Virus genome (UHGV): UHGV-0134758
Source: a virus
Direction: 5' to 3' (one strand)
DNA: 29,961 bases
Shown: positions 519 through 28,579 of the stretch, in pieces
Position numbering within the stretch: the stretch's first letter is position 1
Layout: every line of letters begins with the position of its first letter
Notes under the pieces: generated by a model
The model's input: only the letters and a program-made list of their open reading frames with translations
The model's database searches: none
Told to the model about the DNA's origin: nothing
Translations under genes and position numbers: made by a program

Positions 519-1045
519 AATTTAGTGATGAATGTTGAATCATCTGGAATATCATGCAATACCAATGCATGAGCACCTATTGTGACATTGTTTCCTATAC
601 GCACTTTGCCACCAAGAATGGTGGCATTACAACCAATGGTCACATTATGTCCTATAACAATATCCATATCATTAAATTCCCCGCGAAGTCCAATAGTTAC
701 TCCGGGCTTTATTGAACAATTTTCACCGATTGTGACTTTGTGACCGATGACAACGCCATTGAGATAAGATATGTCGAATCCTTTCCCTATATTTACAGTT
801 AAGGGAACGGTTACATTGTACTTGTCAAGAATGAAGCGTTCCATTTTTCCTGCAACCTTTCGCCTATATCCGCCTTTATCAAAAAGATATTTCGATATGC
901 GCCACCAAAATAAATAACGAACTCTTCTATGTTTTATTGCGCGAACAATTGCTTTTCGCCAGGAGAAAGGACGCTCGCTACCAATTACTTCATAGTGAAT
1001 ACAGTCTTTAAGTTCATTAATGGTCATATTTCTATTGTTCAGCAT
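482..1045 (-). CDS. hexapeptide-repeat (left-handed beta-helix) acetyl/acyltransferase
   Basis: Tandem hexapeptide repeats [16 protein letters not shown]...[34 protein letters not shown]. Visibly AT-rich. Its 3' end overlaps the 3' end of the convergent tfa gene by 37 nt. No clear Shine-Dalgarno before the first ATG. Confidence 0.75.
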
Positions 1046-1466
1046 AATATAATCATGTGACCAATTATTATAATAATTTTAATGAATTATTTCTACTGAT
1101 TATCCAGTGTGTCTGGTGGTTTTCGGTATTATCTGCCGGAACCATGCCTCATCCAGCGAGTATTTGCTGCCGGGGTTATCCGGTTTTACGGTCACACCCT
1201 CGAGCCTCCGATTCTGGTCACGGCGGGTTTGTTATTTCCCGGTGCGTCGGATGACCACTGCCGTAACTTCTGCACCATTTTTGGGGGGGGCGGGATTCCA
1301 CTCCCACGCAACCTGCGCTTTTTGTGCAGCCTGTTTTGCTGCGCTGTCCCGGATTTTTGAGTTTCATTCTGCCCTCCCCCGATCCTATCAGGGACGACAC
1401 CCATCCACTTAAGCACGATGCCAAGACCATCAAGGAGCAGCGTCAGCGGTCCCAGCACAATGTTCT

Positions 1467-1510
1467 GCTTGACATCCTCCACGCCCTAAAGGACGTGGAG
1501 GATGTCAAGC
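1467..1510. repeat. perfect 17-bp inverted repeat (gcttgacatcctccacg / cgtggaggatgtcaagc) with 10-nt spacer
   Basis: Seen directly in sequence, anchored on the 1324..1563 ORF frame. The spacer ends also pair (cct/agg), giving a near-continuous 44-bp palindrome about 65 nt upstream of the holin-like start. Confidence 0.85.
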
Positions 1511-1573
1511 AACATGACCGGTTGAGAAGTTACTTTGCATACCATTACCTCCTGACAACGTAGGAGGGAACTT

Positions 1574-1903
1574 GTGCTTGACACACAGGAATTAGCTCCA
1601 GTTGCTATTGCGCTCCTGCTTTCAGTAATTGGTGGGATAGGCACGTTCCTGATGGATGTCCGAGACGGTCGCCAGTCTGGCAATTTGTTGGGATTGGTTA
1701 CGGAGATCTTTGTTGCAGTGACAGCTGGCGCGGTGGCGTACCTATTGGGGCAACACGAGGGCTGGGAGTTATCAATTACGTACTTAATGGTAACGATAGC
1801 CAGCAATAACGGTCATGAGGTGATTTCAGGGATGAAACGAGTGAATATCGATAGCATTCTGAATGTTCTTACAAGTTTGGTGAAAAAGGGAGGCGGGAAA
1901 TGA
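1574..1903 (+). CDS. holin-like small membrane protein (position of P1 lydA)
   Basis: 109 aa with 2-3 hydrophobic helices (LAPVAIALLLSVIGGIGTFL, LLGLVTEIFVAVTAGAVAYLL) and a charged C-terminal tail KKGGGK. GTG start 5 nt after AGGAGGG. First gene of an operon of overlapping ORFs. Confidence 0.7.
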   Translation: MLDTQELAPVAIALLLSVIGGIGTFLMDVRDGRQSGNLLGLVTEIFVAVTAGAVAYLLGQHEGWELSITYLMVTIASNNGHEVISGMKRVNIDSILNVLTSLVKKGGGK

Positions 1904-2343
1904 TTGGCTGGGGTGTATGCGTTCTTGCGTTAGCCTTAGCCGATCGCTATTTGCTAAAACGCAAGGACATCACGCATTTAGAACTTGGTGATGTGGAAAT
2001 TAAACCGGGTTTCATCCGGGTGCCGTTCAAATACCGGTCTAAATTCCCGTTTTTGCGCGGCGCAACGGTCAGATATTGGATCCGCGATGTTCAGAAGCCG
2101 ACGACAGTGATTGAAGGCGAACAACGTTGTTTGACGTCGGCTGAACAGGGCGAAAACAGTGAATGGTTGTACATACCCACTGAATATATGGGTAAAGGAG
2201 AGCGACTGTGGCATTTCAACGTCATGGTTACGCATGGCGACTCGTTCATTAACCCGTTGTATCGGATTTTCCCTGTTACTCAGCAAATCCGCAGAAGTTA
2301 CGTAATAAATCTCGCACAGGATGTGTCAGATGACGAAAAATAA
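1900..2343 (+). CDS. hypothetical protein, possible antiholin (position of P1 lydB)
   Basis: ATGA start/stop overlap with the preceding holin-like gene; hydrophobic N-terminus. Assignment is positional only. Confidence 0.55.
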   Translation: MIGWGVCVLALALADRYLLKRKDITHLELGDVEIKPGFIRVPFKYRSKFPFLRGATVRYWIRDVQKPTTVIEGEQRCLTSAEQGENSEWLYIPTEYMGKGERLWHFNVMVTHGDSFINPLYRIFPVTQQIRRSYVINLAQDVSDDEK

Positions 2344-2932
2344 GTATGCAACGGTCGATTTTGACCAAGTTAATGAAAAGGGGCTGAAATCCCTTATCGC
2401 GGCGATCAATAAAACCGGGGTTACGGTAATTGAGGTTGACTCCAGCAACCGAGCAACAACGAAAGATGGCGTTAAAGTTAAAACCGCAAAGCTGGTTCTT
2501 AACGACGGACAAATTCTTGCCATACAGGTAAACGATACTGGCGATATATCGTCTGTGAAACTGAATGGAAAAGCTATTCCTAACGCTCAGTCGCCGGATA
2601 TCAAGACGCTTGGTACCGTCATGGGACAGGCGGCCCGCAAAAACTCCGCAAAATTCCAGAAATCACTGATCGCCAAAGCGAAGCGTGTAGCCAATCCGGT
2701 AGACAAGAAACCGGCAGTTAAATCCAACTTTCAGCGCCTGCAAGAAGCAAAACAGCGGAATGCTCAGGTGGTTGCCGCTTATAAGTCCGCGCAGAATTCG
2801 GTGTCTTTCAATCAACAGCAGATCACTGATTTGCGGGCGAAGCTGGATAAGGAGACGGGCCGACTCAATAACGAAAAGGCACGGAATGGCGAACTCAAAC
2901 GTCGTCTTAAGCAACTGAAAGCAGGAAATTAA
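2330..2932 (+). CDS. hdf: Hdf-like protein (paralogue of a DarA segment)
   Basis: Shares blocks with the downstream 639-aa protein (AARKNSAKFQKSL vs LAEKNSAKFQRAQ, followed by a basic coiled-coil region). Start placed at the ATG at 2330 (AGG about 9 nt upstream); the track lists 2321. Confidence 0.6.
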   Translation: MTKNKYATVDFDQVNEKGLKSLIAAINKTGVTVIEVDSSNRATTKDGVKVKTAKLVLNDGQILAIQVNDTGDISSVKLNGKAIPNAQSPDIKTLGTVMGQAARKNSAKFQKSLIAKAKRVANPVDKKPAVKSNFQRLQEAKQRNAQVVAAYKSAQNSVSFNQQQITDLRAKLDKETGRLNNEKARNGELKRRLKQLKAGN

Positions 2933-2933
2933 C

Positions 2934-4853
2934 ATGGAACAGTTCAATATCAATAAAGGGGTGACGATCAAGCCTGGGCTTGACGTGCTTCCCCCGCCAG
3001 TGACTGATGATGAATATCGCGCATTAATGGCCGGTGAGGACCGCTATCTGATGACGGAATCCAACACCCTGGAGGAAATCGAGGCTACGTTCTTCTATGA
3101 CACGCCGATCCACTGGTGTGCTACGGATTTACTGGAGGCGATTAGTTCTACTCGTTTGCAGTTACACCGGACCATGCAGGCATTTGTCCGGGCATTGAAC
3201 CAGAAGCTGAATGGCACCGGAATCTCTGCGGGGAGTGATAAAACGGGGGATGTGGCCCAGAGCGGCGCGCGCGCGATCGGCGGTGCTGAAATTGGCCGGG
3301 CACGGAACGTTAACGGGCTGCCGGTCCTGCCAGCCATTATTCCGCTCAGTGATGGTCAGACTATCAGCATTCTGTTTCATAGCCCGACAGCGGAAAACCG
3401 GATCACCAATAGCGATACGCTGGTTGCTTTCCAGTTCTTACTGAATAAAAAAGACGTTACTCACACCGTTGCTCCGATGAGTGGACGTGATATGACGCTG
3501 GCGCAGGTCACCATGAAACTTGCCAACCTTGCAGAGAAAAACTCGGCAAAATTTCAGCGTGCGCAGAAGAAGAAAAAAGCCCTGGTTGATGAAATAACCC
3601 AACTACAGGCTGACAGTGACCAGAAAGAGGATGCCATGAGCGACCTCGCGGATCAGGTGGCAGCGGTAGAAGGGCAGAAGGTAGATCTGGAGCAGAAAAT
3701 TAACGCTGTTGCATCGGAAGCGGATTCTCTTTATGAAGAGAATGAGCGTTTGCAGACGGAGATTGATCAGCTCAATCGCACTGGTGGGCGCGAAACCATT
3801 GCTCCTGCGGGGATGACTGGTGGACACTCTCGCGCGATGACGGATCGCCTTGCAAGTATCAAAAATCGTATGCATATGAACGGGGAAGTGACGCTCAGTA
3901 ATGGTGCATCAATGAAGCAATTCATTGAGGACGGTGAAGGGTATATCCAGTTAACCGATTCGGATGGCAGCGTGTACATGATCAAGGCTAAATCCATACA
4001 GGGTGTGGACATGGCAGAAGCGATCGGCAAGCTGTTTAAAGCCTATAAAGCGGGTAATGTATCGGAATATCTGGTCCAACCAGAAGAACATAAACCGGAA
4101 AACGTCGAACCTGAACCAGCGGAGGATACCGGTAGCTCTTCGCCTGAACCAGAAGTCTCTGTAGGTGCATATCGATATGCCCTGCAAATGCGTCCGGCGG
4201 CCCCTGGCGCAATACCTGAAGGTAACAAAGCAATTCTGCCGCGCCCTGATGAAGGTGACCCGTATTATGAATATGCACGCTACGGCATTGCTACTTACGA
4301 TACCCCGCTTTCTGATCAGCAAATGAGTGAGTACGACCTGAAGTTATTGCCTCGCGAGGATTCTTTCGACTTCCTGGCGAAGACACTTACTAATGGTCCG
4401 TTTGGCAAATATGCACAAAAAGCTCTGGAGCTGGCCACCAGCTCACCAGACGAGTTCCGCGTAATGCTGAAGACTCAGTTTCAAAAAACTTTCCCCAATA
4501 TTGCGTTTCCGGGGGGCGCTGGCACCGAGAAAATGGTGCAGAGCATGATCAATGCATTGCAGGCCGAAGTCGGTGAGATTACTCAGCCAGAACCGGCCCC
4601 GGCACAGCCTGATGAAACGGTTAGCGAAGCAGATGCAGAGGCTAATAAAGCCATTGAATATCTCAATAACGTGATGGATATGCAAAGCACTGACATGGCG
4701 GAGATCCGTAACGCCCGGGGCAATGTCCGGGAAGCGATTGCAGCCCTTCAGGCTGCCGGACGTTTTGAGGAAAACGAAGAGCTGGTTAATGGCGCTGCTC
4801 GCCACCTGGCTGATCTGCTGGTAGCAATCCAGAAAGCGGGGGTAGCGGCATGA
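2934..4853 (+). CDS. darA: DarA-like antirestriction / internal head protein
   Basis: 639 aa, the length I recall for P1 DarA. Start 1 nt after the hdf stop with AGGAAA upstream. Central coiled-coil, acidic Pro/Glu-rich linker. Lies between hdf and two further operon genes as in the P1 dar operon. Confidence 0.75.
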   Translation: MEQFNINKGVTIKPGLDVLPPPVTDDEYRALMAGEDRYLMTESNTLEEIEATFFYDTPIHWCATDLLEAISSTRLQLHRTMQAFVRALNQKLNGTGISAGSDKTGDVAQSGARAIGGAEIGRARNVNGLPVLPAIIPLSDGQTISILFHSPTAENRITNSDTLVAFQFLLNKKDVTHTVAPMSGRDMTLAQVTMKLANLAEKNSAKFQRAQKKKKALVDEITQLQADSDQKEDAMSDLADQVAAVEGQKVDLEQKINAVASEADSLYEENERLQTEIDQLNRTGGRETIAPAGMTGGHSRAMTDRLASIKNRMHMNGEVTLSNGASMKQFIEDGEGYIQLTDSDGSVYMIKAKSIQGVDMAEAIGKLFKAYKAGNVSEYLVQPEEHKPENVEPEPAEDTGSSSPEPEVSVGAYRYALQMRPAAPGAIPEGNKAILPRPDEGDPYYEYARYGIATYDTPLSDQQMSEYDLKLLPREDSFDFLAKTLTNGPFGKYAQKALELATSSPDEFRVMLKTQFQKTFPNIAFPGGAGTEKMVQSMINALQAEVGEITQPEPAPAQPDETVSEADAEANKAIEYLNNVMDMQSTDMAEIRNARGNVREAIAALQAAGRFEENEELVNGAARHLADLLVAIQKAGVAA

Positions 4854-5215
4854 CACTATCAGCTATTGAGTTAATGGATCTCAGCGATAAGTTGGATGCT
4901 CTGATGTCCAAAGCGGCTACCGCGAGTGGCATGGAGTTGCTGGATATCAGCGATGAAATTGACCAGATCATGCAACAGATGGGGTACGGCGCGTCCGGCG
5001 GCAGTAGTGGCGAGGAAAAACAACCTTCGGTACATGATGGTGTGCCAAAACTGGTTGCTGATTTCCTGGCTGATAAATTCGTCGATCAGAGCACAGATGC
5101 ATTTATCGGTACTTTGCAGGACTTGAGTCAATATGTTGGCACATACATCGACCTGGACCAGGTTAAACAGCACACGGCGGCATGGATAGCCGCCAACATT
5201 AAAGAGGCAGCATAA
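4850..5215 (+). CDS. small acidic protein (position of P1 ddrA)
   Basis: ATGA overlap with the darA stop, indicating translational coupling; 121 aa. Positional assignment only. Confidence 0.55.
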   Translation: MTLSAIELMDLSDKLDALMSKAATASGMELLDISDEIDQIMQQMGYGASGGSSGEEKQPSVHDGVPKLVADFLADKFVDQSTDAFIGTLQDLSQYVGTYIDLDQVKQHTAAWIAANIKEAA

Positions 5216-5227
5216 GGCGTAACAGGG

Positions 5228-8221
5228 ATGAGCTTAAGCGATCAGGTGGTAATGGCCACCAGCATAGAAACGCTGATCGAGCTGCTAAAGAACCTGCCCG
5301 ATTATGGGCGGGTTTCGTATGTGGTGACAGCGAAGGGAGACGAGGTAAAAACGGCGTTTGATATCGTCGATGCCTCAGCTCTTTTGGTATCCAATACTCT
5401 GGATGGGAAAATTAATCCTGACTATCCCCAGGAACTTCAGCCGCGCGACCGGACCCGCGCATCCAGCCTTCTTCAGGTTAACCAGATATCCAAAGATTTG
5501 CGGCCTGCTCAGCTTACTGACTCCGGTTTATCCAGCCATGGCGCGCCGATAATTGGTGAGGACAATGCCGTTGAGTCAGGTAATGGGCGGACCATGGGGA
5601 TCATTAAAGCCTATCAGGACGGTAATGCGGATCGGTATCGGGAGTACCTGATTGAACATGCGACCGAATTCGGCATACGGCCTGAAAGGGTTGAATCAAT
5701 GACGGCTCCGGTACTGGTGCGCCGCCGGTTAACGAAGGTTGACCGTGTTCAGTTTGCCAAGGACTCAAATATTTCTGATCTCCAGGAAATGGCAGCCAGT
5801 GAAAAGGCTTTTGTTGATGCCGACAGCATAACTCCGGCGATGATGGCGCTGTTTAACCCGTCAGAAAGCGGAGATCTGCTTAGCCGCAGTAATGACGCGT
5901 TTATTCGCGGATTCATGACGCAAGTTGGTGCCACACAGGCGGCTGGACTTGTAACTGAAGATGGGCGACCAACACGGCAACTTGTTGACCGGATACAAAA
6001 CGCGATCTTTGCCAAGGCATATATGGATGCGCGCCTGGTAAGGATGGTTGCAGAAGAACCTGATCCGGATATGCGTAATGTTCTGACGGCGCTTAATGCG
6101 GCGGCCAATGATTTTGTCCAGATGCAGGCTTTATCAGGAGAAGCGCACAAGCAGGCTGTGACAACCATCGTTGATGGCATTGAAACAGCGGATAGCCTCG
6201 ATAAAAAGGCGCTGGCGGCATTGAAAGATGCGGTAGACCTGGTAAGGCAATCGAAGGAGTCAGGCCAACATATTACCGATGTTATTGCTCAGGGGGATAT
6301 GTTCAGCGAAACAGCCCCGGAAGTGAAAGCTCTCGCGTTGTTCATCGTCGCGAATAACCGTAGCGCGAAGCGTATGGCCACCGCCTTTAAATTGATGGCT
6401 CAACGTATCAATGATGAGTTACAGCACCAGGGCCAGGCGCTGGGGGATATGTTTGGCGGTGGCGATGTGTCGTTACAGGATATCCTTCGCCAGGTGTCTC
6501 AGGAACTGGAAAACGAAGGCATTCAAGGGATATCCGGCGGTCTTTTCGAGTCCGTTTCCGGCGGTAGTTACAACGGTGTTGCTCCATATACCAGTTTGCT
6601 ATTACATCGGGCATCCGGCATCAAAGACATTATTCATCTGATCAGGCTGCTTTCCCGCACAGATCCCCAGGATGAACAGCTTGTACAAGTGCTTGCGCAT
6701 TTTGTTCGAATGCCTGTTGCCGACGTGAAAAAATGGTGCCGATTATTCGGTATCAGCAATTCGTTACTTCGCGGCTTGTTAAATCACGCATCCTCCCTTG
6801 GGCGCGATGGCTTTGACGAGATAGCGCAGGCGATAAAAAACGGAGATATGCCACCAGCTATTGACTGGTTTTCCATTCGCCCAACCAGGGTGAAAGCATT
6901 CCTTAGCGCGGCGCATTCGGCATCACCATTGGCAGAAATGGTTCAGAGGTTGTCGCTCATATTCACAGACCATAGCGCGTTGGGTGATCTGACTCTGGAC
7001 GAGATGAAAGAAGCCTCCATTCAGTGGGCCGATCAACAAAATGAGGTTAACTCAGACTTCTTGCCAGCATTCAGGAAGGCCGTTAGTAAAGTGGATGATG
7101 CCCGTGGAATTCTGAAAGCATTTAAGGCATTGCAAAGTCGGGTTAATAAACATGTCGGTGATATCGATGGGGTAACGGCGGAAGGCAGGGATATCCTAAA
7201 AGAGCACGGCATAACGCCAGAGTTTATTGATGAGATCAGGACTGATATGCAGCGTGAGGTAGTATCGTCCCTGCAAATCGTAGCCAGAGCGTTGGCGGAT
7301 GCTAATCCGAAGAGTGCGGCCATTGTTAACCGGGTTATTGGTGATATTGAAGCATCGGAGGGCATGGGGGCGCTGAAACTTTTCCTTTCGCGAGCGTTTA
7401 ATCCTAACGGCAATATTCTCCCTGGTATTATTGGTGAGGCTAAAAAGTATGCCAGCGAAGAAGAACTTGAGCATCTTGACCAACTACTTAAGCGATTCTC
7501 ATATAACCCGCAGACACGCTGGCAAATGAATCAGCAAAGTATGGGTTCGGTCCACGAGAAAGTGTTATCTGCCATGAACAGTGCGATCGCCAACTCATCC
7601 GTATCTGAAGAAAAAGCTCTTGAGTGGGCCGACTCTTTTATCACGGAAGAAGTGGAAGAAGCCCGCGCTGGACAGAATGGTGGGATAGACCTGCGCAAGG
7701 AACTTGCTGATATTTATCGCCTGACCGGCGGTAAAATTTCGACCTTATCAAAGGTGGTTCACCACCAGGGAAGGGCATATGCAAATCTAAATGGTGTTGT
7801 TGCTGTCAATTTGAACGATGAAAATGCAAGTGCACTGTGGCACGAGCTGGGTCATCATCTTGAGTACAGTAACCCTGGTTTGTTAGAGAAAGCTAAAGTT
7901 TTTCTTAAGAAAAATATGATTGGAGATAAGCCAGCATTTATAAATACTGGTCAAAAGGGGAAAAAAGAGTGGGTTTTAACTTCATGTCTTAGTGATAGTT
8001 ATATGGGAAGAGTATACCCTGATTTTTCGGTAACACGTTCTGGAAAAATAAACTTCAAAACACCCACTATATCAAAAGCGAGAGCAACGGAAGTCTTCTC
8101 TATGGCGCTTCAGTTATATCATGATAAGGAAGCGTTGGCTGCATCGCTTATGAATGGTGACGGATTGGTCGAATTGTTGTTGGGCGTATCTCAGGAGTTA
8201 AACATTGAAAATTCACGTTGA
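5228..8221 (+). CDS. large dar-operon protein (position of P1 ddrB)
   Basis: 997-aa uninterrupted ORF with start 12 nt after the preceding stop. No catalytic motif recognised by eye. Confidence 0.7.
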   Translation: MSLSDQVVMATSIETLIELLKNLPDYGRVSYVVTAKGDEVKTAFDIVDASALLVSNTLDGKINPDYPQELQPRDRTRASSLLQVNQISKDLRPAQLTDSGLSSHGAPIIGEDNAVESGNGRTMGIIKAYQDGNADRYREYLIEHATEFGIRPERVESMTAPVLVRRRLTKVDRVQFAKDSNISDLQEMAASEKAFVDADSITPAMMALFNPSESGDLLSRSNDAFIRGFMTQVGATQAAGLVTEDGRPTRQLVDRIQNAIFAKAYMDARLVRMVAEEPDPDMRNVLTALNAAANDFVQMQALSGEAHKQAVTTIVDGIETADSLDKKALAALKDAVDLVRQSKESGQHITDVIAQGDMFSETAPEVKALALFIVANNRSAKRMATAFKLMAQRINDELQHQGQALGDMFGGGDVSLQDILRQVSQELENEGIQGISGGLFESVSGGSYNGVAPYTSLLLHRASGIKDIIHLIRLLSRTDPQDEQLVQVLAHFVRMPVADVKKWCRLFGISNSLLRGLLNHASSLGRDGFDEIAQAIKNGDMPPAIDWFSIRPTRVKAFLSAAHSASPLAEMVQRLSLIFTDHSALGDLTLDEMKEASIQWADQQNEVNSDFLPAFRKAVSKVDDARGILKAFKALQSRVNKHVGDIDGVTAEGRDILKEHGITPEFIDEIRTDMQREVVSSLQIVARALADANPKSAAIVNRVIGDIEASEGMGALKLFLSRAFNPNGNILPGIIGEAKKYASEEELEHLDQLLKRFSYNPQTRWQMNQQSMGSVHEKVLSAMNSAIANSSVSEEKALEWADSFITEEVEEARAGQNGGIDLRKELADIYRLTGGKISTLSKVVHHQGRAYANLNGVVAVNLNDENASALWHELGHHLEYSNPGLLEKAKVFLKKNMIGDKPAFINTGQKGKKEWVLTSCLSDSYMGRVYPDFSVTRSGKINFKTPTISKARATEVFSMALQLYHDKEALAASLMNGDGLVELLLGVSQELNIENSR

Positions 8222-8759
8222 AGTTCCGCCATGTCATGCGGCCATTGTTGAATACGTTGATGATGCGCCGCTGAAAATTATTTCTGGCGACATCACAGAA
8301 GACATGATAGCGAATGCTATAAATCGGGTAATTCCTGATGAAAGCCTAAAAATAGTTAATACGCTTGATGCACCTGGTGTGCATGTGCTTCTGACATTAC
8401 AGCAGGTTTGTGGATGGAACATATACTGGCCTGGTTGGGATGATGAAGAAGATCTTATTGTCAGAATTAATATTGCCACCCCATTTGGGGAAACAGCGCT
8501 TGTTGAGTATGGCGACGACGAACCGCTAAAAATTATTTCCGGTGATATTACCGAAATCATGATTGAAGAAGCGATCGCTGGTGCAAGTCCTGGAGGTTAT
8601 TTAGGGTTGGTTAACACCCTTGATGCATCTGGCGTAGAGATTCTTCGAACACTGAATTATTTTGCTGGCTGGTTTGTTGATTGGCCTGTGGTTGAGGGTG
8701 GCGATGAAGATGACGACGACGATGATTTGGATATCCATATTGCTCCGTACGTAAATTGA
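8205..8759 (+). CDS. hypothetical acidic protein with internal tandem duplication
   Basis: Two copies of an approx. 55-aa module (AAIVEYVDDAPLKIISGDITEDMIANAI... and TALVEYGDDEPLKIISGDITEIMIEEAI...), then a poly-Asp tail (DEDDDDDD). Start overlaps the preceding ORF by 17 nt. Confidence 0.55.
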   Translation: MKIHVEVPPCHAAIVEYVDDAPLKIISGDITEDMIANAINRVIPDESLKIVNTLDAPGVHVLLTLQQVCGWNIYWPGWDDEEDLIVRINIATPFGETALVEYGDDEPLKIISGDITEIMIEEAIAGASPGGYLGLVNTLDASGVEILRTLNYFAGWFVDWPVVEGGDEDDDDDDLDIHIAPYVN

Positions 8760-8764
8760 ACAAA

Positions 8765-8788
8765 CCCCGCCGATTGGCGGGGTTTGTT
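8765..8788 (+). terminator. rho-independent terminator
   Basis: ccccgcc-gatt-ggcgggg stem-loop followed by tttgtt, 6 nt after the stop at 8759. Confidence 0.7.
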
Positions 8789-9090
8789 CCTAGCGTGCCG
8801 TAAAATACTACCCTTCAGGTTTAATTGACATGGTGTTTTCAATGTTATGCTATAGATTCATTTTGCTTGCTAATTTATATCAAAATTTATTGAACCAATT
8901 GTTGAGTACATTTTAAATCAGCAACTCTTAAATTTTGCTAATTAATTAGTCAGCTATCTATCGCTGTGGTTGATATTAATGTGCTGGTGTAACGTGTTTT
9001 TATATTGTGCTGTTGTCTCTGGTTGCGATTTGGTCTTAGTGTTATTTCTTGCTCTGTTTATTAATCAATTGGTTTACAGTGATGTTTTTT

Positions 9091-9106
9091 TGTGATTTCG
9101 ATCACG
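9091..9106. promoter_or_regulatory. CRP-like site (tgtgatttcgatcacg)
   Basis: Matches TGTGA-N6-TCAC of the CRP consensus in the AT-rich region about 115 nt upstream of the porin start. Hand-counted coordinates. Confidence 0.3.
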
Positions 9107-9218
9107 AAAATATCTCGATTTTTATTTGCAAAACTTGAAACGCAAATCCAAAAACGATAAATATTTCCTCGCAGTGACTTCTTTTCTGTTGAAAAGTTCA
9201 ATCTAAAGGGCAAAAAAA

Positions 9219-10331
9219 ATGAAAAAAATTACAGTGGCACTTTCTACGGTTGCAGCATCTGTTCTGATGGCAATGTCTGCACAAGCGGCAGAAATCTATA
9301 ACAAAGACGGTAACAAACTGGATCTGTACGGCAAAGTTAATGCAGAGCATTACTTCTCTTCTTCAGCTAGTAATGACGGAGATAAAACTTATGCTCGTAT
9401 GGGTTTCAAAGGTGAAACTCAGATTAATGACCAGTTAACCGGTTTTGGTCAGTGGGAGTACGAATTTAAAGGTAACCGTACTGAAACTGAAGGTTCTGAT
9501 AAAGATAAAACTCGTCTTGCGTTTGCAGGACTTCGCTTTGGCGATTATGGTTCGCTCGACTATGGTCGCAACTACGGTGTAGCTTATGATGTTGGCGCTT
9601 GGACTGACGTTCTGCCTGAGTTTGGTGGAGATACCTGGACTCAGACTGATGTATTTATGACCCAGCGTGCTACTGGCGTGGCGACCTATCGTAACAATGA
9701 TTTCTTCGGCCTGGTTGATGGTCTGAACTTTGCTTTGCAGTATCAAGGTAAAAATGATAGTGCTTCAAAAGTGAACAACCCGAAAGGCCGCGAAGCAGTT
9801 GAATCTAATGGTGATGGTTTTGGCCTGTCAGCTACTTACGATTATGAAGGATTTGGCGTTGCTGCAACCTATGCAAAATCTGACCGTACTGATGGGCAGG
9901 TATCCTATGCTAAAAACAGTCATCTGAATGCCTCTGGTAAAACTGCTGAAGTATGGGCTACGGGCCTGAAATATGATGCAAACAACATTTATCTGGCTGC
10001 CACTTATTCTGAAACTCAGAATATGACAGTCTTCGGTGATGATCATATTGCAAACAAAGCGAAAAACTTTGAAGCTGTTGCTCAATACCAGTTCGACTTC
10101 GGCTTGCGTCCGTCCATTGCTTACCTGCACTCTCGCGGTGAAAATATTGGTGCGTTCGGTAATCAGGATCTGGTTGAATACATCGAGGTAGGCACGACCT
10201 ATTACTTCAACAAAAATATGTCCGCTTTCGTTGACTACAAGATCAACCTGATTGATGAAAGTGAATTTACCAAAGCATCTGAGGTTGCAACCGACAACAT
10301 CGTTGCTGTTGGTATGACCTACCAATTCTAA
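9219..10331 (+). CDS. general porin of the OmpC/OmpF/PhoE family (Lc/NmpC-like phage-borne porin)
   Basis: Signal peptide [23 protein letters not shown] then mature [17 protein letters not shown]; conserved blocks GFGQWEYEF and LQYQGKN; C-terminal ...VGMTYQF with terminal Phe. Strongly resembles prophage porins Lc/NmpC from memory. Confidence 0.9.
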
Positions 10332-11197: not shown

Positions 11198-11755
11198 ATG
11201 AAGGGAAAAACAGCCGCAGGAGGCAGTGCAATTTGCGCTATCGCGATGATGATTACCATCGTGATGGATAATGGCAATGTGCGAACCAACCAGGCGGGGC
11301 TTGAGCTTATCGGAAACGCTGAAGGTTGCCGACGTGATCCATACAAGTGCCCGGCGGGTGTATGGACCGACGGGATCGGTAATACACACGGGGTAACGCC
11401 TGGCGTGCGAAAAACCGACCAGCAAATCGCCGCTGATTGGGAAAAGAATATCCTGATCGCTGAACGCTGTATTAACCAGCACTTCCGGGGCAAAGACATG
11501 CCCGATAATGCCTTCAGCGCAATGGCAAGCGCGGCATTCAATATGGGATGCAATAGTTTACGGACCTACTACAGCAAAGCGCGAGGCATGCGAGTCGAAA
11601 CGTCCATCCACAAGTGGGCGCAGAAAGGGGAATGGGTGAATATGTGTAACCATCTCCCTGATTTTGTGAACAGTAACGGCGTCCCCCTGCCCGGGTTAAA
11701 GATTCGCCGTGAAGAAGAACGCCAGCTTTGCCTGACGGGGCTTGTCAATGAATAA
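11198..11755 (+). CDS. lyz: SAR endolysin (lysozyme, T4-lysozyme/GH24-like)
   Basis: MKGKTAAGGSAICAIAMMITIV signal-anchor-release N-terminus, then catalytic block ELIGNAEGCRRDPYKCPAGVWTDGIGNTHG. 185 aa from the ATG at 11198 (GAGG upstream), near-identical to P1 Lyz from memory. The track ORF starts further upstream at 11099. Confidence 0.9.
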   Translation: MKGKTAAGGSAICAIAMMITIVMDNGNVRTNQAGLELIGNAEGCRRDPYKCPAGVWTDGIGNTHGVTPGVRKTDQQIAADWEKNILIAERCINQHFRGKDMPDNAFSAMASAAFNMGCNSLRTYYSKARGMRVETSIHKWAQKGEWVNMCNHLPDFVNSNGVPLPGLKIRREEERQLCLTGLVNE

Positions 11756-12002
11756 ACTCCGGCAGCTCCGCCGACTTTCGACAATGAAGTTATCGCTGGC
11801 GGCGATAGTTTTTGACTCGATTTTCATGGCGGTATATGTGCTCAATGAGACGTGGCCACTGGAACCGCTATTATATGCCGGGCTTCGGCTGTGCCTGACA
11901 TTTTTGAGCATGGCTGCAAGATTGATGCAGCAGAAAGAAACCGCTTCAGATTGCCCACGTCGCGCGGTGCGCAAATATATGGCACGCAGACGAAGGCGAT
12001 AA
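11742..12002 (+). CDS. small putative membrane protein overlapping the lyz 3' end
   Basis: 86 aa with two hydrophobic segments (LSLAAIVFDSIFMAVYVL, LLYAGLRLCLTFLSMAA) and an Arg-rich C-terminus. No recognisable homology; could be spurious. Confidence 0.35.
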   Translation: MSMNKLRQLRRLSTMKLSLAAIVFDSIFMAVYVLNETWPLEPLLYAGLRLCLTFLSMAARLMQQKETASDCPRRAVRKYMARRRRR

Positions 12003-12013
12003 TAGTTAACGAG

Positions 12014-12041
12014 AACCCCGGCAGCCGCCGGGGTTATTTTG
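12014..12041. terminator. terminator hairpin between convergent genes
   Basis: aaccccggc-agcc-gccggggtt followed by attttgggtgg on the plus strand; lies between the 86-aa ORF stop and the stop of the minus-strand protease candidate. Confidence 0.55.
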
Positions 12042-12046
12042 GGTGG

Positions 12047-14777
<2,731 letters not shown>

Positions 14778-14843: not shown

Positions 14844-17800
14844 ATGAACAAGCTATCTATGGGGTTGTTTCGCTGTTCAAGTGTCAGCGAAATATTGAAA
14901 TACATTAGGGCAATAACATCTCATCGAGCGCCGATTAGATACGGCGTGGAAAAGGTGGAAGGCAAAAGCTATGACCGGCTGCGCCGGGAGGCGAATCAGA
15001 AGGCGATAGATTTGCTTAATTCGCTGGTGGACGGCGCGACACTGACAGATGAACAGCGCCAGATCCTGGCCGGGTACACTGGTGAAGGCGGCATTGGCGG
15101 GTCCGTCTCCGAATATTACACACCAAAGCCTATCGCTGAAGGCGTCTGGGAGATCATGAAGCTCTATGGCGCGGACGTAGGTAACACTCTGGAACCATCG
15201 GCGGGCACCGGCGTTTTTAATGAGACAAAACCGGTTGGTACGGTGATGACCGCGACTGAGATCAGCAGTGTTTCCGGTCGTATAAACCAGCTGTTACATC
15301 CGGAAGACAGCGTACAGATTTCCCCGTTCGAACAACTCGCTGTAAGCACGCCTAACGATTCATTCGACCATGTTGTGGGTAACGTTCCGTTCGGCGGTCG
15401 TGATAACACACGCAACATCGATAAGCCTTACGCAGAAGAAACGGATATGGGGTCTTACTTCATGCTCCGCATGCTGGACAAGATAAAGCCAGGCGGATTC
15501 ATGTGTGTGATTGTGCCGCCGTCCATTGTTTCAGGTTCAAACATGAAGCGGTTACGCCTGCGCCTATCACGGAAAGCTGAATTTCTTGGTGCCCACCGCT
15601 TGCCTACCGGTACTTTTGACGCAAACGGGACCAGTACGGTCGTTGACGTGGTGCTGATGCGCAAACATCCGGCGGAGATGGCTGAGAAAATCCCCCTGGT
15701 GGATGAAGGCACTCTTGAATCGGCAAATGTGCTTTGGCCAACGTTTATTTCTGGCAAGTGGTTTGAAAAGGACGGCCGCCGGTTTGTTCATGGCACCCAG
15801 GAGAAGGGATTCCAGGGGCGTATTGAGGTTCGTGCCGACGGGCAGATTGATAACCAGGCTCTTAAAGCGAAGCTGATTCATCGTTTCGAAAGTCGTATCG
15901 ACTGGTCTTTGCTCGATATGGCTGAACCGTCACCGACCGCAGACGTTGTTGGTGAAGGGGAAATACGCCTGATTAATGGCGTATGGCAAAAATATGCTGG
16001 TGGTCGCTGGATTGAATCTGATGCCGGGAAGGAGCTGAAGATTGATGTTGCCAGTTATGGCGCGGATAGCTGGGAGGCTCTTCAGCGTAACCTGACTACA
16101 ACAGAAGGCCGTCTCGGCATGACATTTACCCAGATGGCAAATGTCCGCGATAAGTACACCACATCAATCAGCGACGATATGGTGCAGCTGGTGGACTGGA
16201 TTAACAGCCAGCCTGAAAAATACCGTGAACGCTTGTATCGCGGGGCGATGATTGGCCGGATGTTAATTGAATATCAGGATATGAAGGCCGCCGGGCATAG
16301 TGCTGAACAAATCGAACAGCAGCGCCTTTCCCTGGTATCCCGTTTGCAGGCAGAGATTGACCGTTTTGGTAACCCCGGTCGCGGTCCGATAGCGAAATTA
16401 TCGGGGAGCGGTGCGCGCGCCTGGTTTGCTTTCCGTGGTGCAATTAAGCTGGATGGCACTATTTCTGACGAGCTGACAGGAAAGCTGGTTACGCATGATT
16501 CCAGCGCCAGTTATGACTCCACCAGCTATCAGGACACCCTGCGTTATCTCTACAGTGATCTCACTCGCGATCCAATCCAGCTCGATGATTTCCGCCTTGC
16601 GTTTACCGGCGAACTGCCAGCCAGTGATGACGAGTTGCTTAATTTATTGGCCAGCACCCCTGGCATTGCGGTTTCACCGTATGGCGGGATTGTTCCGTTT
16701 GCCCGCGCCACCAGCGGCGACATTAACGAGATAGTGGCTCCAAAACAGGAATTCCTCGCCACGCTCCCCGACGGTCCAGTAAAGAACAACGTCCTTAATC
16801 AGCTGGCAGCGATCGAAGAGAAGCGCATCAAGACGCCAGCAGAGAATATCCGGTTTAAGCTCAATAGCCGTTGGTTTGACCGTTCCGTCATCCTGGAGTT
16901 TTTGCAGGAAAACGGCTATCCGGATCTGCGCTATGTGCAGTCAGTGCAGCTGGAAGGCGACGAAATGGTTTCTGACACCTATCACGGTGGTGATGGTCTG
17001 TTCGTCGGACACCGATACGGTGTCGTCCAGCGCAAGGATAAAGAAACAGGCGAGATCCGCTACGAGTGGGACCGTAAATCAGGTGAAAACGCGACCGGGT
17101 TCCCGGCACAGCTGGAAAAGTATCTCAATGGTGCGCGTATCGGTGGCAAAGATAGCGCGACGGCGAACGGCTACCGCGAGCAGATGGCACTGCTTGAGGA
17201 CCAGTTCAATAAGTGGATCAAGACGCACGATCGCTACGATGAGCTGGTTGCCAAATACAACGATGTGTTCAATAGCAATATCCCGTATGAACACTCTGGC
17301 GATCCGCTTGGGTTGAAGGGATTAAGCGGTAAGCGCCAGCCATTTGATTACCAGAATAGCGAGGTGCGCCGACTGTCCGAAGATGGGCGCGGCATCCTGG
17401 GCTTCGGCACCGGGCTGGGTAAAACCACGACCGCGCTGGCGCTTGAGGCGTTCAACTATGAGAACGGTCGCTCCACCCGTACTGCGTATGTAGTGCCTAA
17501 ATCAGTGCTGGAAAACTGGTATTACGAAGCAAAAGAATTCCTGAGTGAAGAGGCATTCAGTAACTACCTGTTCGTCGGTCTTGATGTGCTGATGGATGGC
17601 GATCAGATTCGCCAGGTGCCGGTGCTCGATGAGAACGGTAAACCAGTTCTTGGTACTGATGGCACTCCAGTTATGCGCGATGCTCTTAAGCTGGCAGATG
17701 AAGCCACTATCACGGCGCGGATGAACGCGATCCCGCACTCAAATTACCGTGCAGTCGTGTTTACCAAAGAACAATACGCCCGCATTCCGCTACGTGATGA

Positions 17801-20800
17801 CACCGTAGATGAGCATGCACAGGATATGCTTTATGACTTCGTTGCCGCCGGGCGCGTAGCCAGCGCAATGGACTCCGACTCCCACCGCAAAGAGGCCGCG
17901 CGTCGCCGGGTATTATCGGAGTATTCAGATACCGGCACCGAAAAAGCAGAGAAGTATCCGTACTTTGAGGATATGGGCTTCGATAGTGTGATCGCCGACG
18001 AAGGTCACAACTACCGCAATAGCTATAAAAATGGTCGCGAAGCGTCACAACTGGCCTATCTGCCCACCAGCGCGGTGGCGCAATCGGCGCGAGATATGGC
18101 AATCAAAAACGCGTACCTGATGAAAAAGAATGGCGGGCGCGGACCGGTTCTCCTGACTGCAACGCCAGTCGTTAACACCCCGATCGATGCATACAACATG
18201 CTTTCTCATGTTCTGCCGAAGGAATACTGGCAGAAGATGGGGATCTACGGTCCTGATGACTTCGTTAAATTCTTCGGCAAGACCAGGCTGGAAACGGTAC
18301 AGAAAATCAGCGGTGAAGTTGAAGAAAAAATGGCGCTGGTGGGTTTTGAAAACCTTGATGCGCTGCGCGGCATATTCCATCGCTGGACAACGCTTAAAAC
18401 GGCGGAAGACGTTAAGGATACCGTGGAGATCCCGGAGCTGGACGAACACCAGCAGGATGCACCACTTACTGAAGAACAACTGGCGGCGTATGAAGAATTG
18501 CGTCAGCAGGCAGAAGCGGCAGCCAAAGCCAACAATGGCGTAACGACCTCGGTCAATGAAGACGGCGTGATTGAGCACGAGAAAGCCCGTCCGATCTTCT
18601 TAATAATCAGGGATATGGACCGCGTATGTACTGACATGGACCTGTACTATCGCCGGATCACCTATCGTTTCCTGCCGGAGTACGCCGATGCGGTGCAGCA
18701 GCTGGCGGACAGTTTGCCTAAACAAGCCACCAGCGAAGACGACGACAGTGATGATTCTATCACGCAGCAATCGCAATACTCCCTGATAGATAAGGGCGAG
18801 TTTATTCAGTTGCAGGTTCCGGAAGCGTTCGAGCAGGAAGTGAATAAGCGCCTGGCCAGGTTTGGCATTGACGAACAGACCGTTACTCACCCCGTTACGC
18901 CCAAATACGCGAAGCTGATCGCCACGCTGAAGGAGTTTTTCCCGGAAGGTAAGCAAATCATCTTCACCGATGAAAAAACGCAGCACCAGAAGCTCAAGCG
19001 CATTATCTGCAATGCTCTTAACCTTGAACCTTCAAAGGTGGGGATCCTGAATGCTCAGACGGTTGCCGAGGCAGGCAAAACCGGTAAGAAACTGAAAGCG
19101 GTTAAACCGCCGAAAGAGTTACCGGATGAACCAACAGATGCACAGATAGCGAAATACAACGAGCAAATGGCTCTGTATGACGCCTATATCGCGCAGCAAA
19201 ATGAAATGTCGTTGGGCGGTCTGGAAAAGATTGCAGCAGACTTCCAGGAGGGCCGGACTCCGATCATCATCTGCAACAAAAAGGCAGAGGTGGGTATCAA
19301 CCTGCATCGAGGAACGACTGACATCCATCATCTGACGTTGCCGTGGACTCCAGCCAGTATCGCACAACGTAACGGTCGCGGTGCCCGAGTTGGCTCCAAC
19401 CGTGCAAGCGTTCGCGTTCACTACTACTGCGGCAAGGGTTCTTTCGATGAATACCGACTGAAGACGCTGAAGCGTAAAGCAGGCTGGATCTCCGATATCC
19501 TCCGTTCAGATAAGTCAGAAATGGAGAACGCCGACGCCAACGATATGGTCGAAATGCAGATGTATACCGCGAAGGATGACGGCGAACGTCTGGCAATGAT
19601 GCAGGTTCAAATGGATAAGGCGAAAGCCGCGCAACGCGCTCGCCAGAAAGAACAGGCTACTATCGACCTTCAGAACTACATCAAGGCGCAGCACGCAGCT
19701 GGCGAGGATGTGGAGGTACTTACCGCTGAATTAGAGCGAAGCAAAGCGGAACTTGAAAAGACCACCGCCGAGGTAGCTAAATTCAAACAGGCGGTAATGG
19801 CCAAAGCAGCTGATAACGCAGACTGGAAGGCCCGCTGGGGGAGTGTCCATCACACAGACCGTATGTTGTTAGCACAGTATCGCGCGTCGTTGAAAAGCGC
19901 CATTCAGCGCAAGGCTAATATCTCTCAAGCCATCTCCCGCTATGAGAAATTATTGAACCGTACTCAGAAGGCCGCGACGGATATCAAACGCCTGCGCCCG
20001 CTGGTGGAGGATGCAATAAATAAAGGCATTCTGGATGTTGATCCTGACCTGGTTAACCATGCGAGTGAGTTCCTTGTTATCGGCGATCGCTCATGGCGTG
20101 TAGGCCAATACTACGATTGTGCCGGTGATATCGTTCGCATTAAGTCGCTGGACTTCGACAGCCAGCGCGCAGACGTGGAGATCATCTTTACCTTAAAAGG
20201 CACCAAATCGGGTAACTGGGATGTGAAGACGCTGGATAAACAGGTTGATGTAACTCCCGATGAAGATGCTGTTATGCAGAAAATCAGTGGTGGCGTCTCC
20301 ATCGCCGGGATTAACGACATCATTTCCTGTGACGATTTCTACCGTTTCCAGCAGCGCGGCATGATCAAAATCACTGACTCATACGGCGTTCAGACTACAG
20401 AGTCAGGCTATAGCATTGATTTTGTTGGTACCTATACGGACCCGCTGAAGCATGCGGTTTACCCGGATCGCCGTGACGGCGCGCTGAAGTCGTCAATTGC
20501 AAAATGGGTGCTTGGTATGATGTTGGAAGGGAATAACCGCCAGATCCGTTCGGCAGAAACATTCCTGGTTGAACTGTTTGGCTCCAATTATGGCGATGTA
20601 ATCGCGTCATACGGAGATACGCTATCCCCTGAAGCAATTCAGGAGAAAATAGCGGATGCGATCGCCAGAATGCCGGAAAAAACAAGCCAGGGGGCTACTC
20701 GTAACGGGGATTCTGAACTTGAAGTCACCAATGCCATTTTTGGTACCAATGAGTTCCGGGCGTCAGATTATGAGATCACCACAGCACAGTTTGGCACCAT

Positions 20801-21611
20801 TGGCATTTACAGTAATAAAGACGAGATCAAGCAGGCAATGGACGCAGCAAGTGCGCGCATTGCAGCAGAACGGAAAGCCAATCTGAATCATGCAGTCGCC
20901 GCGCTGACTCAATCGTGGGTAACAGCAATCAGGGAGGCCGCCACCACAGGAAAAATCACACCGGCAATTGCGGATGTCGTAAACGACGGCTCTAAATTTA
21001 TGGATGCCTATAAAATGGATGCGGTGCAGTTGCCATCAGCCTATGGCCAACTCAGCTATCGCATGACCTACAACCTGGTATCAATGTTTACTGACCTTGC
21101 CATCCTTGGGCTGGTGGACCTTAACGAGGTTACGCCGGAATTACTCAGCATGCGCAAGAATCATGTGGAGATATTGCACAGAATTAACACGGTACTTGCC
21201 GGGCGCATCGATGAAGAGAAACAGGCAGACGCTGATCGGATAAACCTGGCCCTTGGCAACATCACGGAGGAAGAAATTGCCGCCAGAAACGAGAAACAAG
21301 AAGAGTTATCATCAATACAGGGTGATGCCACCAGCATAGCTCAGTCTCTTGGTCTGAATTATCGCGTATCCACTGCCGACCTGAAGATGATGTACGCACC
21401 AAAATTCGCCGCTGGCGAGGTATTTGGGCTTCAGGAGGCGTCCGGCATGAAAGGCATTCTTTTCCGTGCGAAAGACGCAATCAAGGCGAAATTCGGCGCT
21501 CGCTGGCTGCCAGCGAAGGCAAAGAACAGCGATTTTCCGGGTAACTGGTGGATTATCGAGACAAAACACAACGTGGCGGACGTTCTGGCCGTCATCCAAC
21601 AATACGCATAA
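14844..21611 (+). CDS. darB: DarB-like antirestriction protein: N-terminal N6-adenine methyltransferase domain fused to a superfamily-2 helicase
   Basis: 2255 aa. SAM motif LEPSAGTGVF (nt 15189..15218) and catalytic-type GNVPFGG (nt 15378..15398). Walker A GFGTGLGKTT (approx. residue 850), DEGH (approx. residue 1050) and helicase motif VI QRNGRGARVGS (approx. residue 1510). Length matches P1 DarB from memory. Confidence 0.9.
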   Translation: MNKLSMGLFRCSSVSEILKYIRAITSHRAPIRYGVEKVEGKSYDRLRREANQKAIDLLNSLVDGATLTDEQRQILAGYTGEGGIGGSVSEYYTPKPIAEGVWEIMKLYGADVGNTLEPSAGTGVFNETKPVGTVMTATEISSVSGRINQLLHPEDSVQISPFEQLAVSTPNDSFDHVVGNVPFGGRDNTRNIDKPYAEETDMGSYFMLRMLDKIKPGGFMCVIVPPSIVSGSNMKRLRLRLSRKAEFLGAHRLPTGTFDANGTSTVVDVVLMRKHPAEMAEKIPLVDEGTLESANVLWPTFISGKWFEKDGRRFVHGTQEKGFQGRIEVRADGQIDNQALKAKLIHRFESRIDWSLLDMAEPSPTADVVGEGEIRLINGVWQKYAGGRWIESDAGKELKIDVASYGADSWEALQRNLTTTEGRLGMTFTQMANVRDKYTTSISDDMVQLVDWINSQPEKYRERLYRGAMIGRMLIEYQDMKAAGHSAEQIEQQRLSLVSRLQAEIDRFGNPGRGPIAKLSGSGARAWFAFRGAIKLDGTISDELTGKLVTHDSSASYDSTSYQDTLRYLYSDLTRDPIQLDDFRLAFTGELPASDDELLNLLASTPGIAVSPYGGIVPFARATSGDINEIVAPKQEFLATLPDGPVKNNVLNQLAAIEEKRIKTPAENIRFKLNSRWFDRSVILEFLQENGYPDLRYVQSVQLEGDEMVSDTYHGGDGLFVGHRYGVVQRKDKETGEIRYEWDRKSGENATGFPAQLEKYLNGARIGGKDSATANGYREQMALLEDQFNKWIKTHDRYDELVAKYNDVFNSNIPYEHSGDPLGLKGLSGKRQPFDYQNSEVRRLSEDGRGILGFGTGLGKTTTALALEAFNYENGRSTRTAYVVPKSVLENWYYEAKEFLSEEAFSNYLFVGLDVLMDGDQIRQVPVLDENGKPVLGTDGTPVMRDALKLADEATITARMNAIPHSNYRAVVFTKEQYARIPLRDDTVDEHAQDMLYDFVAAGRVASAMDSDSHRKEAARRRVLSEYSDTGTEKAEKYPYFEDMGFDSVIADEGHNYRNSYKNGREASQLAYLPTSAVAQSARDMAIKNAYLMKKNGGRGPVLLTATPVVNTPIDAYNMLSHVLPKEYWQKMGIYGPDDFVKFFGKTRLETVQKISGEVEEKMALVGFENLDALRGIFHRWTTLKTAEDVKDTVEIPELDEHQQDAPLTEEQLAAYEELRQQAEAAAKANNGVTTSVNEDGVIEHEKARPIFLIIRDMDRVCTDMDLYYRRITYRFLPEYADAVQQLADSLPKQATSEDDDSDDSITQQSQYSLIDKGEFIQLQVPEAFEQEVNKRLARFGIDEQTVTHPVTPKYAKLIATLKEFFPEGKQIIFTDEKTQHQKLKRIICNALNLEPSKVGILNAQTVAEAGKTGKKLKAVKPPKELPDEPTDAQIAKYNEQMALYDAYIAQQNEMSLGGLEKIAADFQEGRTPIIICNKKAEVGINLHRGTTDIHHLTLPWTPASIAQRNGRGARVGSNRASVRVHYYCGKGSFDEYRLKTLKRKAGWISDILRSDKSEMENADANDMVEMQMYTAKDDGERLAMMQVQMDKAKAAQRARQKEQATIDLQNYIKAQHAAGEDVEVLTAELERSKAELEKTTAEVAKFKQAVMAKAADNADWKARWGSVHHTDRMLLAQYRASLKSAIQRKANISQAISRYEKLLNRTQKAATDIKRLRPLVEDAINKGILDVDPDLVNHASEFLVIGDRSWRVGQYYDCAGDIVRIKSLDFDSQRADVEIIFTLKGTKSGNWDVKTLDKQVDVTPDEDAVMQKISGGVSIAGINDIISCDDFYRFQQRGMIKITDSYGVQTTESGYSIDFVGTYTDPLKHAVYPDRRDGALKSSIAKWVLGMMLEGNNRQIRSAETFLVELFGSNYGDVIASYGDTLSPEAIQEKIADAIARMPEKTSQGATRNGDSELEVTNAIFGTNEFRASDYEITTAQFGTIGIYSNKDEIKQAMDAASARIAAERKANLNHAVAALTQSWVTAIREAATTGKITPAIADVVNDGSKFMDAYKMDAVQLPSAYGQLSYRMTYNLVSMFTDLAILGLVDLNEVTPELLSMRKNHVEILHRINTVLAGRIDEEKQADADRINLALGNITEEEIAARNEKQEELSSIQGDATSIAQSLGLNYRVSTADLKMMYAPKFAAGEVFGLQEASGMKGILFRAKDAIKAKFGARWLPAKAKNSDFPGNWWIIETKHNVADVLAVIQQYA

Positions 21612-24162: not shown

Positions 24163-24350
24163 AGCGCCCCTACAAAAAAGAAAAGCCACCAGCGGCGGCT
24201 TAGCAATACAACTGAAGGTAGCACCCGGTACTCAGACTGTGCCGTCCATGGAATATTTGAAAAGGGATCCATCCGTACCGGGCGTGTGATGATTCTGACT
24301 GAAGTCACTTGTCAGTTGTCAATCATTTATCATTAAAAATAATATATTTA

Positions 24351-28547: not shown

Positions 28548-28553
28548 ATTATG

Positions 28554-28575
28554 CCCGGCATCAACCGGGCATTCT
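28554..28575. terminator. hairpin between convergent c1 and ant
   Basis: atgcccgg-catcaa-ccgggcat in the 32-nt gap between the two stop codons. Confidence 0.55.
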
Positions 28576-28579
28576 TCCA

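Follow-up and report, generated by a model that had tools for sequence, protein, structure and literature searches.

Is the stretch between positions 1574 and 8221 of the virus genome UHGV-0134758 an operon that merely resembles the dar operon of bacteriophage P1, or is it that operon? The original prediction, made from the DNA letters alone, described it as a complete lysis-plus-antirestriction operon of the P1 dar type with an Hdf/DarA paralogue pair. Here, we followed up this description across the whole stretch of DNA available, which is 29,961 bp long and is called the window below. The feature is the P1 operon itself and not merely one of P1 dar type, and it is already known. Almost certainly, 1574-8221 represents an intact darA late operon, gene-for-gene orthologous to that of P1, in a P1-like phage-plasmid (Punavirus). 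The result is an annotation, and nothing is added by it to the knowledge of Dar.

Identity and layout of the operon

Six open reading frames (ORFs) are located on the plus strand at 1574-1903, 1900-2343, 2321-2932, 2934-4853, 4850-5215 and 5228-8221. They form the chain of overlapping or near-abutting start and stop codons that had been predicted, with exact coordinates and with both ATGA overlaps, at 1900 and 4850, in place. The first of these overlaps joins lydA to lydB (1900-1903, GGAAATGATTG) and the second joins darA to ddrA (4850-4853, CGGCATGACAC). In addition, lydB and hdf overlap by 23 nucleotides (nt), a spacer of 1 nt lies between hdf and darA and one of 12 nt between ddrA and ddrB, and ddrB overlaps the next ORF (8205-8759) by 17 nt. 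The gene order across 1574-8221, lydA, lydB, hdf, darA, ddrA and ddrB, is the same as in P1.

A megablast search against 50,697 phage records returned 19 full-length matches to 1574-8221 with 96.4-97.9% DNA identity. All 19 are P1 or P1-like (P1, P7, phi456, JL22, RCS47, SJ46, Ro157c2YLVW), and the matched genes are annotated as lydA, lydB, hdf, darA, ddrA and ddrB in the P1-like phage records. Across the 6.6 kb, the DNA identity to P1, P7, phi456, JL22, RCS47 and SJ46 is 96.4-97.5%. When the curated annotation of AF234172 was used as the P1 reference record, window positions 1510-8202 were 96.3% identical to P1 (96.4% by BLAST of 1574-8221). At the protein level, the identities to P1 are 100% for LydA, 98.6% for LydB, 99.0% for Hdf, 97.8% for DarA, 96.7% for DdrA and 94.9% for DdrB, and the protein lengths equal those of P1 except for DdrB, which has 997 amino acids (aa) compared with 995 in P1. 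Pfam assigns a holin, LydB, DarA_N twice, DarA_C and ddrB-ParB to the operon products, and the PHROGs concur. The proposed likeness to the P1 dar operon is therefore borne out, as the products show significant similarity to those of P1 throughout (94.9-100% identity).

The first gene, lydA (1574-1903, plus strand), starts with GTG, is preceded by AGGAGG at 1562-1567 and encodes a holin of 109 aa. This protein scores 30.1 bits (cut-off 28.4) with Pfam Phage_holin_3_3 (PF16083) and matches the holin family PHROG 1527 with an E-value of 4e-49. The second, lydB (1900-2343, plus strand), encodes a LydA antagonist (antiholin) of 147 aa that matches Pfam LydB (PF16084, E 8e-104). A LydA-type class III holin gene followed by an overlapping lydB identifies the two as the LydA/LydB holin-antiholin pair. 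Beyond hdf and darA, which are treated in the next section, ddrA (4850-5215, plus strand) encodes an acidic protein of 121 aa (isoelectric point, pI, 4.1) matching the DdrA-like anti-restriction family PHROG 1855 (E 8e-58). The 997-aa product of ddrB (5228-8221, plus strand) combines a DdrB-type ParB domain at aa 36-167 (Pfam ddrB-ParB, PF18763, E 2e-39) with a C-terminal HExxH metallopeptidase, whose motif, HELGH at aa 872, is retained in the divergent allele described below. The ratio of nonsynonymous to synonymous substitution rates (dN/dS) is ~0.1 throughout ddrB. It has been reported that DdrB consists of a ParB-like domain and a zincin-like peptidase, for which self-processing was proposed (PMC5512222).

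Upstream of lydA, the late promoter LPdar (1527-1545, plus strand) consists of the -22 box AAGTTACTT (1527-1535) and the -10 element TACCAT (1540-1545). Its sequence and spacing equal those of the annotated P1 LPdar base for base, and it is presumably active. Nowhere else in the window does the motif match exactly; with up to two mismatches allowed, eight matches occur compared with 1.9 expected. P1 late-promoter-like motifs with two mismatches each are found at 11092 (plus), 14811 (minus) and 24292 (minus), before lyz, prt/pro and mat, respectively, and thereby mirror P1 LPlyz, LPpro and LPmat. At the other end, a terminator-like hairpin (8758-8789, plus strand) has a 14-bp G+C-rich stem and a 4-nt loop, with an RNAfold energy of -27.3 kcal/mol. 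Since it lacks a clean T-run, a simple terminator scan missed it; it may nevertheless terminate transcription. A sigma-70 promoter scan of 1000-9400 gave fewer matches (6) than shuffled sequences did (10.6), and no RNA family was detected anywhere in the window by Rfam at its gathering thresholds. Most likely, the transcription unit extends over ~1550-8790, from LPdar through the seventh gene to the hairpin.

The homology to P1 starts at ~1507-1510 of the window. At this breakpoint, a 46-nt near-perfect inverted repeat (1466-1511; RNAfold -37 kcal/mol) ends 16 bp upstream of the -22 box of LPdar. It could be a terminator insulating the late operon, or a recombination scar.

The original prediction had called the operon, including its lysis system, complete. 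All six genes are indeed present in P1 order, but the operon continues past position 8221 with the seventh gene (8205-8759) and the hairpin, and other units of the window code for the endolysin, DarB and Ulx. The methyltransferase/helicase Dar component darB (14844-21611, plus strand) encodes 2255 aa, of which 2229 are identical to P1 DarB (98.8%), and the Dar component ulx (21645-22085, plus strand) encodes 146 aa, with 144 identical to P1 Ulx (98.6%); Ulx helps DarB localisation (PMC9024508). The lyz-lydD-lydE cassette (11198-12067, plus strand; lyz at 11198-11755) supplies an endolysin with a Pfam Phage_lysozyme domain and a second holin/antiholin pair, with identities to P1 of 96.2% for Lyz, 100% for LydD and 91.5% for LydE. 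The genes for Prt (portal) and Pro (prohead protease) are also within the window. All six known Dar components and the remaining lysis system are thus present in the window in separate units, and 'complete' applies to the element rather than to 1574-8221, because darB, ulx and the lyz cassette sit in other units. Orthologues of DarA, Hdf, DdrA and DdrB, together with DarB, Ulx and the LPdar sequence, identify this as the P1 Dar system.

Some caveats attach to the locus. The window is a metagenome contig that covers only part of the element, too little for a judgement on whether the whole is a viable phage; its 29,961 bp do not encode the activator Lpa; the last 130 ddrB codons and the seventh gene belong to a divergent allele; and the restriction systems countered have been measured in P1 itself only. 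No evidence contradicts the identification as the P1 darA operon.

The Hdf-DarA pair and its proposed role

Are Hdf and DarA truly paralogues, as had been proposed? The gene hdf (2321-2932, plus strand) encodes a basic DarA_N-domain paralogue of 203 aa, the capsid-lining partner of DarA, while darA (2934-4853, plus strand) encodes an internal head protein of 639 aa with DarA_N, a coiled coil and DarA_C. Pfam DarA_N (PF18788) matches both Hdf (aa 13-109, 77 bits) and DarA (aa 66-204, 143 bits), and DarA_C (PF18789) matches DarA at aa 411-472 above its cut-off. Because both proteins match DarA_N above the gathering score (27), their homology is solid, in line with the shared 'DarA-N' domain described by Iyer et al. 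2017 (PMC5512222). A direct BLASTP comparison of the two gave 31% identity over 90 aa (E ~1e-3).

The shared block that had been cited for the duplication, namely NSAKFQ plus a basic coiled coil, holds in its first part. NSAKFQ occupies aa 108-113 of Hdf (nt 2642-2659) and aa 203-208 of DarA (nt 3540-3557), and the ~20 residues from this motif onwards are basic in both proteins (+5 and +4). However, the long helices that follow are oppositely charged, with a net charge of +9 for Hdf 135-203 and -9 for DarA 211-290; these helices are therefore complementary, and not both basic. The NSAKFQ 6-mer alone was rejected as evidence of paralogy, since 208 of 20,000 Hdf shuffles (1%) share some 6-mer with DarA.

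Full-length matches were also obtained to the chains of PDB entries 9ukm and 9vz0 deposited as 'Defense against restriction protein A' and 'Hdf', with 9ukm_H matching Hdf (E 4e-122) and 9ukm_I matching DarA. In the P1 cryo-electron microscopy (cryo-EM) report (PMC12810830), the helix domains of DarA and Hdf pair on the inner capsid wall, and the opposite helix charges fit this pairing. The same report describes 55 DarA-Hdf pairs at penton-hexon junctions, and states that DarA residues 1-69 are probably cut off by the prohead protease (PMC12810830).

By orthology to P1, the following mode of action can be proposed. An Lpa-dependent LPdar would drive one late transcript spanning seven genes that overlap or are closely packed. 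LydA would then act as the holin, with LydB delaying its action, and the Lyz endolysin would be supplied by the separate late unit at 11.2 kb. In a genome-wide CRISPR interference (CRISPRi) screen of P1, lydB, annotated as preventing premature lysis, scored as essential, while hdf, darA, ddrA, ddrB and hxr scored as non-essential (PMC10695390). The basic Hdf and the acidic helix of DarA would pair on the inner capsid at the penton-hexon junctions and favour normal-size heads, and both proteins would be needed to load DdrA, DdrB, DarB and Ulx. All six proteins, Hdf, DarA, DdrA, DdrB, DarB and Ulx, have been detected in purified P1 virions (PMC9024508), and Hdf and DarA load first and are needed by the other Dar proteins, according to PMC12810830, which cites Piya 2017. 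Together with the DNA, the loaded proteins would exit the head and shield this same DNA in cis from type I restriction, whereby the DarA/DdrA branch would counter EcoA and the DarB/Ulx/DdrB branch EcoB and EcoK. Likewise, Dar in P1 protects only DNA packaged alongside it, i.e. in cis (PMC12707154). By analogy with P1, the element thus probably injects anti-restriction proteins with its DNA; expression, packaging, ejection and the restriction systems countered would all follow the P1 pattern, and the contig should, like P1, escape type I restriction upon entry.

It is conceivable, with a probability well below even, that the primary role of Hdf and DarA lies in capsid-size determination or scaffolding, that the recruited cargo performs the anti-restriction and that 'antirestriction operon' is a misnomer for these two, the largest of the early-loading proteins. 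Deletion of either hdf or darA in P1 reduces normal heads from ~80% to ~15% and excludes the other Dar proteins, and the DarA-Hdf pairs adjoin the capsid-protein cleavage site at the penton-hexon junctions (PMC12810830, the deletion data citing Piya 2017). Furthermore, the packaging interdependence complicates the reading of dar mutant phenotypes (review, PMC12707154). On the other hand, the pairs touch the DNA and are missing from emptied heads, which is consistent with co-ejection (PMC12810830), and darA mutants are restricted by EcoA (Iida 1987, as cited in PMC9024508 and PMC12707154). Such a structural role refines the explanation of the locus as an anti-restriction operon without replacing it.

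The divergent 3' module and the doubled Hxr

With the locus read as the P1 darA operon, its one unusual feature is the 3' end, the final 0.9 kb, most of which lies beyond position 8221. In a five-way alignment, the identity to P1, phi456 and JL22 falls from 95-100% to 17-68% from ~7824 onwards, whereas the sequence stays 67-86% DNA-identical to two Logan read-archive contigs, SRR25011186_148 (L005) and SRR29354239_309 (L006). This divergent 3' module (7824-8759, plus strand) comprises DdrB codons ~865-997 and the following gene. The final 450 bp of ddrB concentrate 111 of the 245 mismatches to P1, and DdrB aa 865-992 are 74% identical to P1 and 85% to L005, compared with 97-99% for aa 1-864. 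At the ~7824 boundary, dS to P1 leaps from 0.09 to 1.59. Since dN/dS remains near 0.1 across this jump, the module is an old, functional alternative allele acquired by recombination, and not a product of decay.

The switch of alleles sits just before the HExxH motif of DdrB, with the same boundary in L005 and L006. In both contigs, ddrB encodes 997 aa and a doubled hxr comes next (product of 187 aa, 77-78% identical); no further sequences with this combination were found beyond these two and the window. The rest of their operon is 95-100% identical to that of the window. With only 67-86% DNA identity and a dS of ~0.9, their 3' module is a sister allele of the one in the window and not the same. 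In L005, an analogous hairpin lies immediately after the doubled hxr, and ssb follows this gene directly, without the porin gene present in the window.

The seventh gene (8205-8759, plus strand) encodes a doubled Hxr-like protein of 184 aa (pI 4.05) with an acidic linker and a poly-Asp tail. Its two repeats, aa 1-76 and 86-161, align to P1 Hxr 1-80 with 46% and 57.5% identity, are 59% identical to each other in DNA and each retain the IISGDITE and GW..WP motifs; PHROG 2292, a family of unknown function, matches in two stretches. Compared with the L005 copy, each repeat shows a dN/dS of 0.15 (dS ~0.9), and the doubled form is therefore old and maintained. The gene overlaps the ddrB stop codon, as hxr does in P1 and in Cronobacter phage JK004, which suggests translational coupling.

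The doubled form is rare. In an index of 5.8 billion proteins, it was represented by the window's own cluster and one other cluster only. It was not found in the 50,697 phage records, in 5,426 complete E. coli genomes, in IMG/VR (8 loci, all single) or in GTDB representative genomes. Nor was it found in 72,556 plasmids, among which one record at 60-80% protein identity was left uninspected; the plasmids held no near-identical DNA, every DNA match to the 3' module was 60-80% identical, and each of the protein matches listed covers only ~282 nt, as one undoubled hxr would. When 1.84 billion proteins were searched exhaustively with a profile, 18 Hxr family representatives at 50% clustering were obtained, of which the convincing ones were all short P1-type proteins, with no informative domain fusion among the 18.

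Family and fold searches were silent, with no Pfam match for Hxr at E-values up to 0.01 and no PDB sequence match at E-values up to 1. In an AlphaFold2 model with a pLDDT score of 72.9, each repeat is arranged as strand-strand-strand-helix-helix-strand, and Foldseek with this model found no match below E 0.09 in the PDB and BFVD. We also considered the label of Hxr as an Xre homologue and possible repressor. It is not supported, as there was no match to a helix-turn-helix family and the model is mixed strand/helix rather than all-helical; since this model is only moderately confident, the label appears weakened rather than disproved.

Could the DdrB peptidase core and the doubled Hxr form a co-adapted pair that alters DdrB processing or Dar specificity? 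In the window and L005, the change of allele falls at an identical position shortly ahead of HExxH, a 997-aa DdrB is followed by the doubled Hxr in both, both repeats are under purifying selection, and hxr overlaps the ddrB stop in P1, JK004 and the window. Nevertheless, we regard this as rather unlikely, because adjacent DNA is co-inherited in any recombination and shared breakpoints show no functional linkage. Only two lineages are involved, Hxr is non-essential in P1 (PMC10695390) and goes unmentioned in the P1 virion proteome paper (PMC9024508), and the domain, PDB, Foldseek and profile searches gave no structural or family clue. It seems quite unlikely that the divergent peptidase core and the doubled acidic Hxr co-evolve, with Hxr serving not as a repressor but as a partner, inhibitor or chaperone of the metallopeptidase or as an acidic anti-restriction factor; the link is speculation from adjacency, overlap and the shared recombination boundary. 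If true, the doubling of Hxr would point to a Dar variant, not sampled elsewhere, whose processing or specificity is altered. Taken as part of the P1 darA operon, Hxr is a conserved seventh gene, and the doubled form under purifying selection offers a handle on its role. The doubled-Hxr/DdrB-peptidase allele is a rare, minor curiosity, and the rest of the operon is ordinary.

Flanking genes and comparison with named relatives

The window opens with a tail-fibre assembly gene (tfa) at 63-518 and a hexapeptide acetyltransferase gene at 482-1045 on the minus strand. They are followed by a 460-bp G+C-rich stretch (1046-1510), at the end of which lies the 46-nt inverted repeat described above. This stretch carries no annotation in any matching E. 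coli record and has no PHROG match worth naming. Downstream of the operon, a gene at 9219-10331 encodes an OmpC/OmpD-like porin (Pfam Porin_1, E 5e-148), a phage-borne porin moron that occupies the site of the P1 isaB-IS1-isaA region, as it likewise does in JL22 and phi456. Between lxc and mat, a DUF2971 protein of 346 aa (22383-23423) is encoded where P1 has the EcoPI res/mod type III restriction-modification genes, and no Res homologue was found in the window. Similarity to P1 Mat is divided between two reading frames of mat (23530-24272, minus strand), with aa 1-44 in one and aa 31-248 in the other, and this points to a frameshift. The annotation of JL22 also contains two Mat-like coding sequences. 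The cre gene lies at 25521-26552 on the minus strand. Beyond it, 27696-29698 holds an ORF of 372 aa for an ORF6N and ANT/KilAC antirepressor on the minus strand, and a 283-aa ORF without a Pfam match, whose length equals that of the P1 C1 repressor.

It is very improbable that the locus is a mere leftover in a P1-derived plasmid which no longer makes virions, with its Dar and Lyd genes unused. In favour of such a reading, no more than 30 kb of the element can be seen in this metagenome contig, mat seems split between two frames, and lydC, cin and the invertible C-segment are missing. Against it, none of the seven operon ORFs is truncated, and dN/dS is ~0.1-0.15 with the divergent part included. 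Outside the operon, the genes darB (2255 aa), ulx, prt, pro, lyz and lydD have likewise stayed intact, with identities of 96-100%. Late-promoter motifs are retained before the dar, lyz, prt/pro and mat units, and the same upstream layout without cin and lydC is also found in complete P1-like plasmids.

Among the named relatives of this intact P1 darA operon, Cronobacter phage JK004 has the same arrangement of seven genes, the last of which overlaps the ddrB stop. It is more divergent, with ~71% DNA identity over the first 2.5 kb and a single Hxr of 96 aa. Its DdrB is 58% identical to that of the window, while the ParB-like N-terminal half is nearly invariant. The E. coli plasmid NZ_CP033848.1, a P1-like phage-plasmid, carries an upstream tfa-acetyltransferase-460 bp-LPdar-lydA junction that is 99.7% identical to that of the window, but has an IS200/IS605 TnpB between ddrA and ddrB, a DdrB of the 995-aa type and a single Hxr. 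The ddrA-ddrB spacer of the window (5216-5227) is intact, and RCS47, SJ46 and vB_EcoM-813R1 carry the IS200/IS605 TnpB (insQ) insertion there, as does this plasmid.

P1 itself has lydC, cin and the invertible C-segment upstream of the operon, which are absent in the window and replaced by the tfa and acetyltransferase module. It encodes a single Hxr of 102 aa and a DdrB of 995 aa, compared with the tandem double of 184 aa and the DdrB of 997 aa in the window. In all other respects compared, the P1 darA operon, lydA-lydB-hdf-darA-ddrA-ddrB-hxr (AF234172, nt 24244-31230), has the same genes in the same order, with the same overlaps and the same late promoter.

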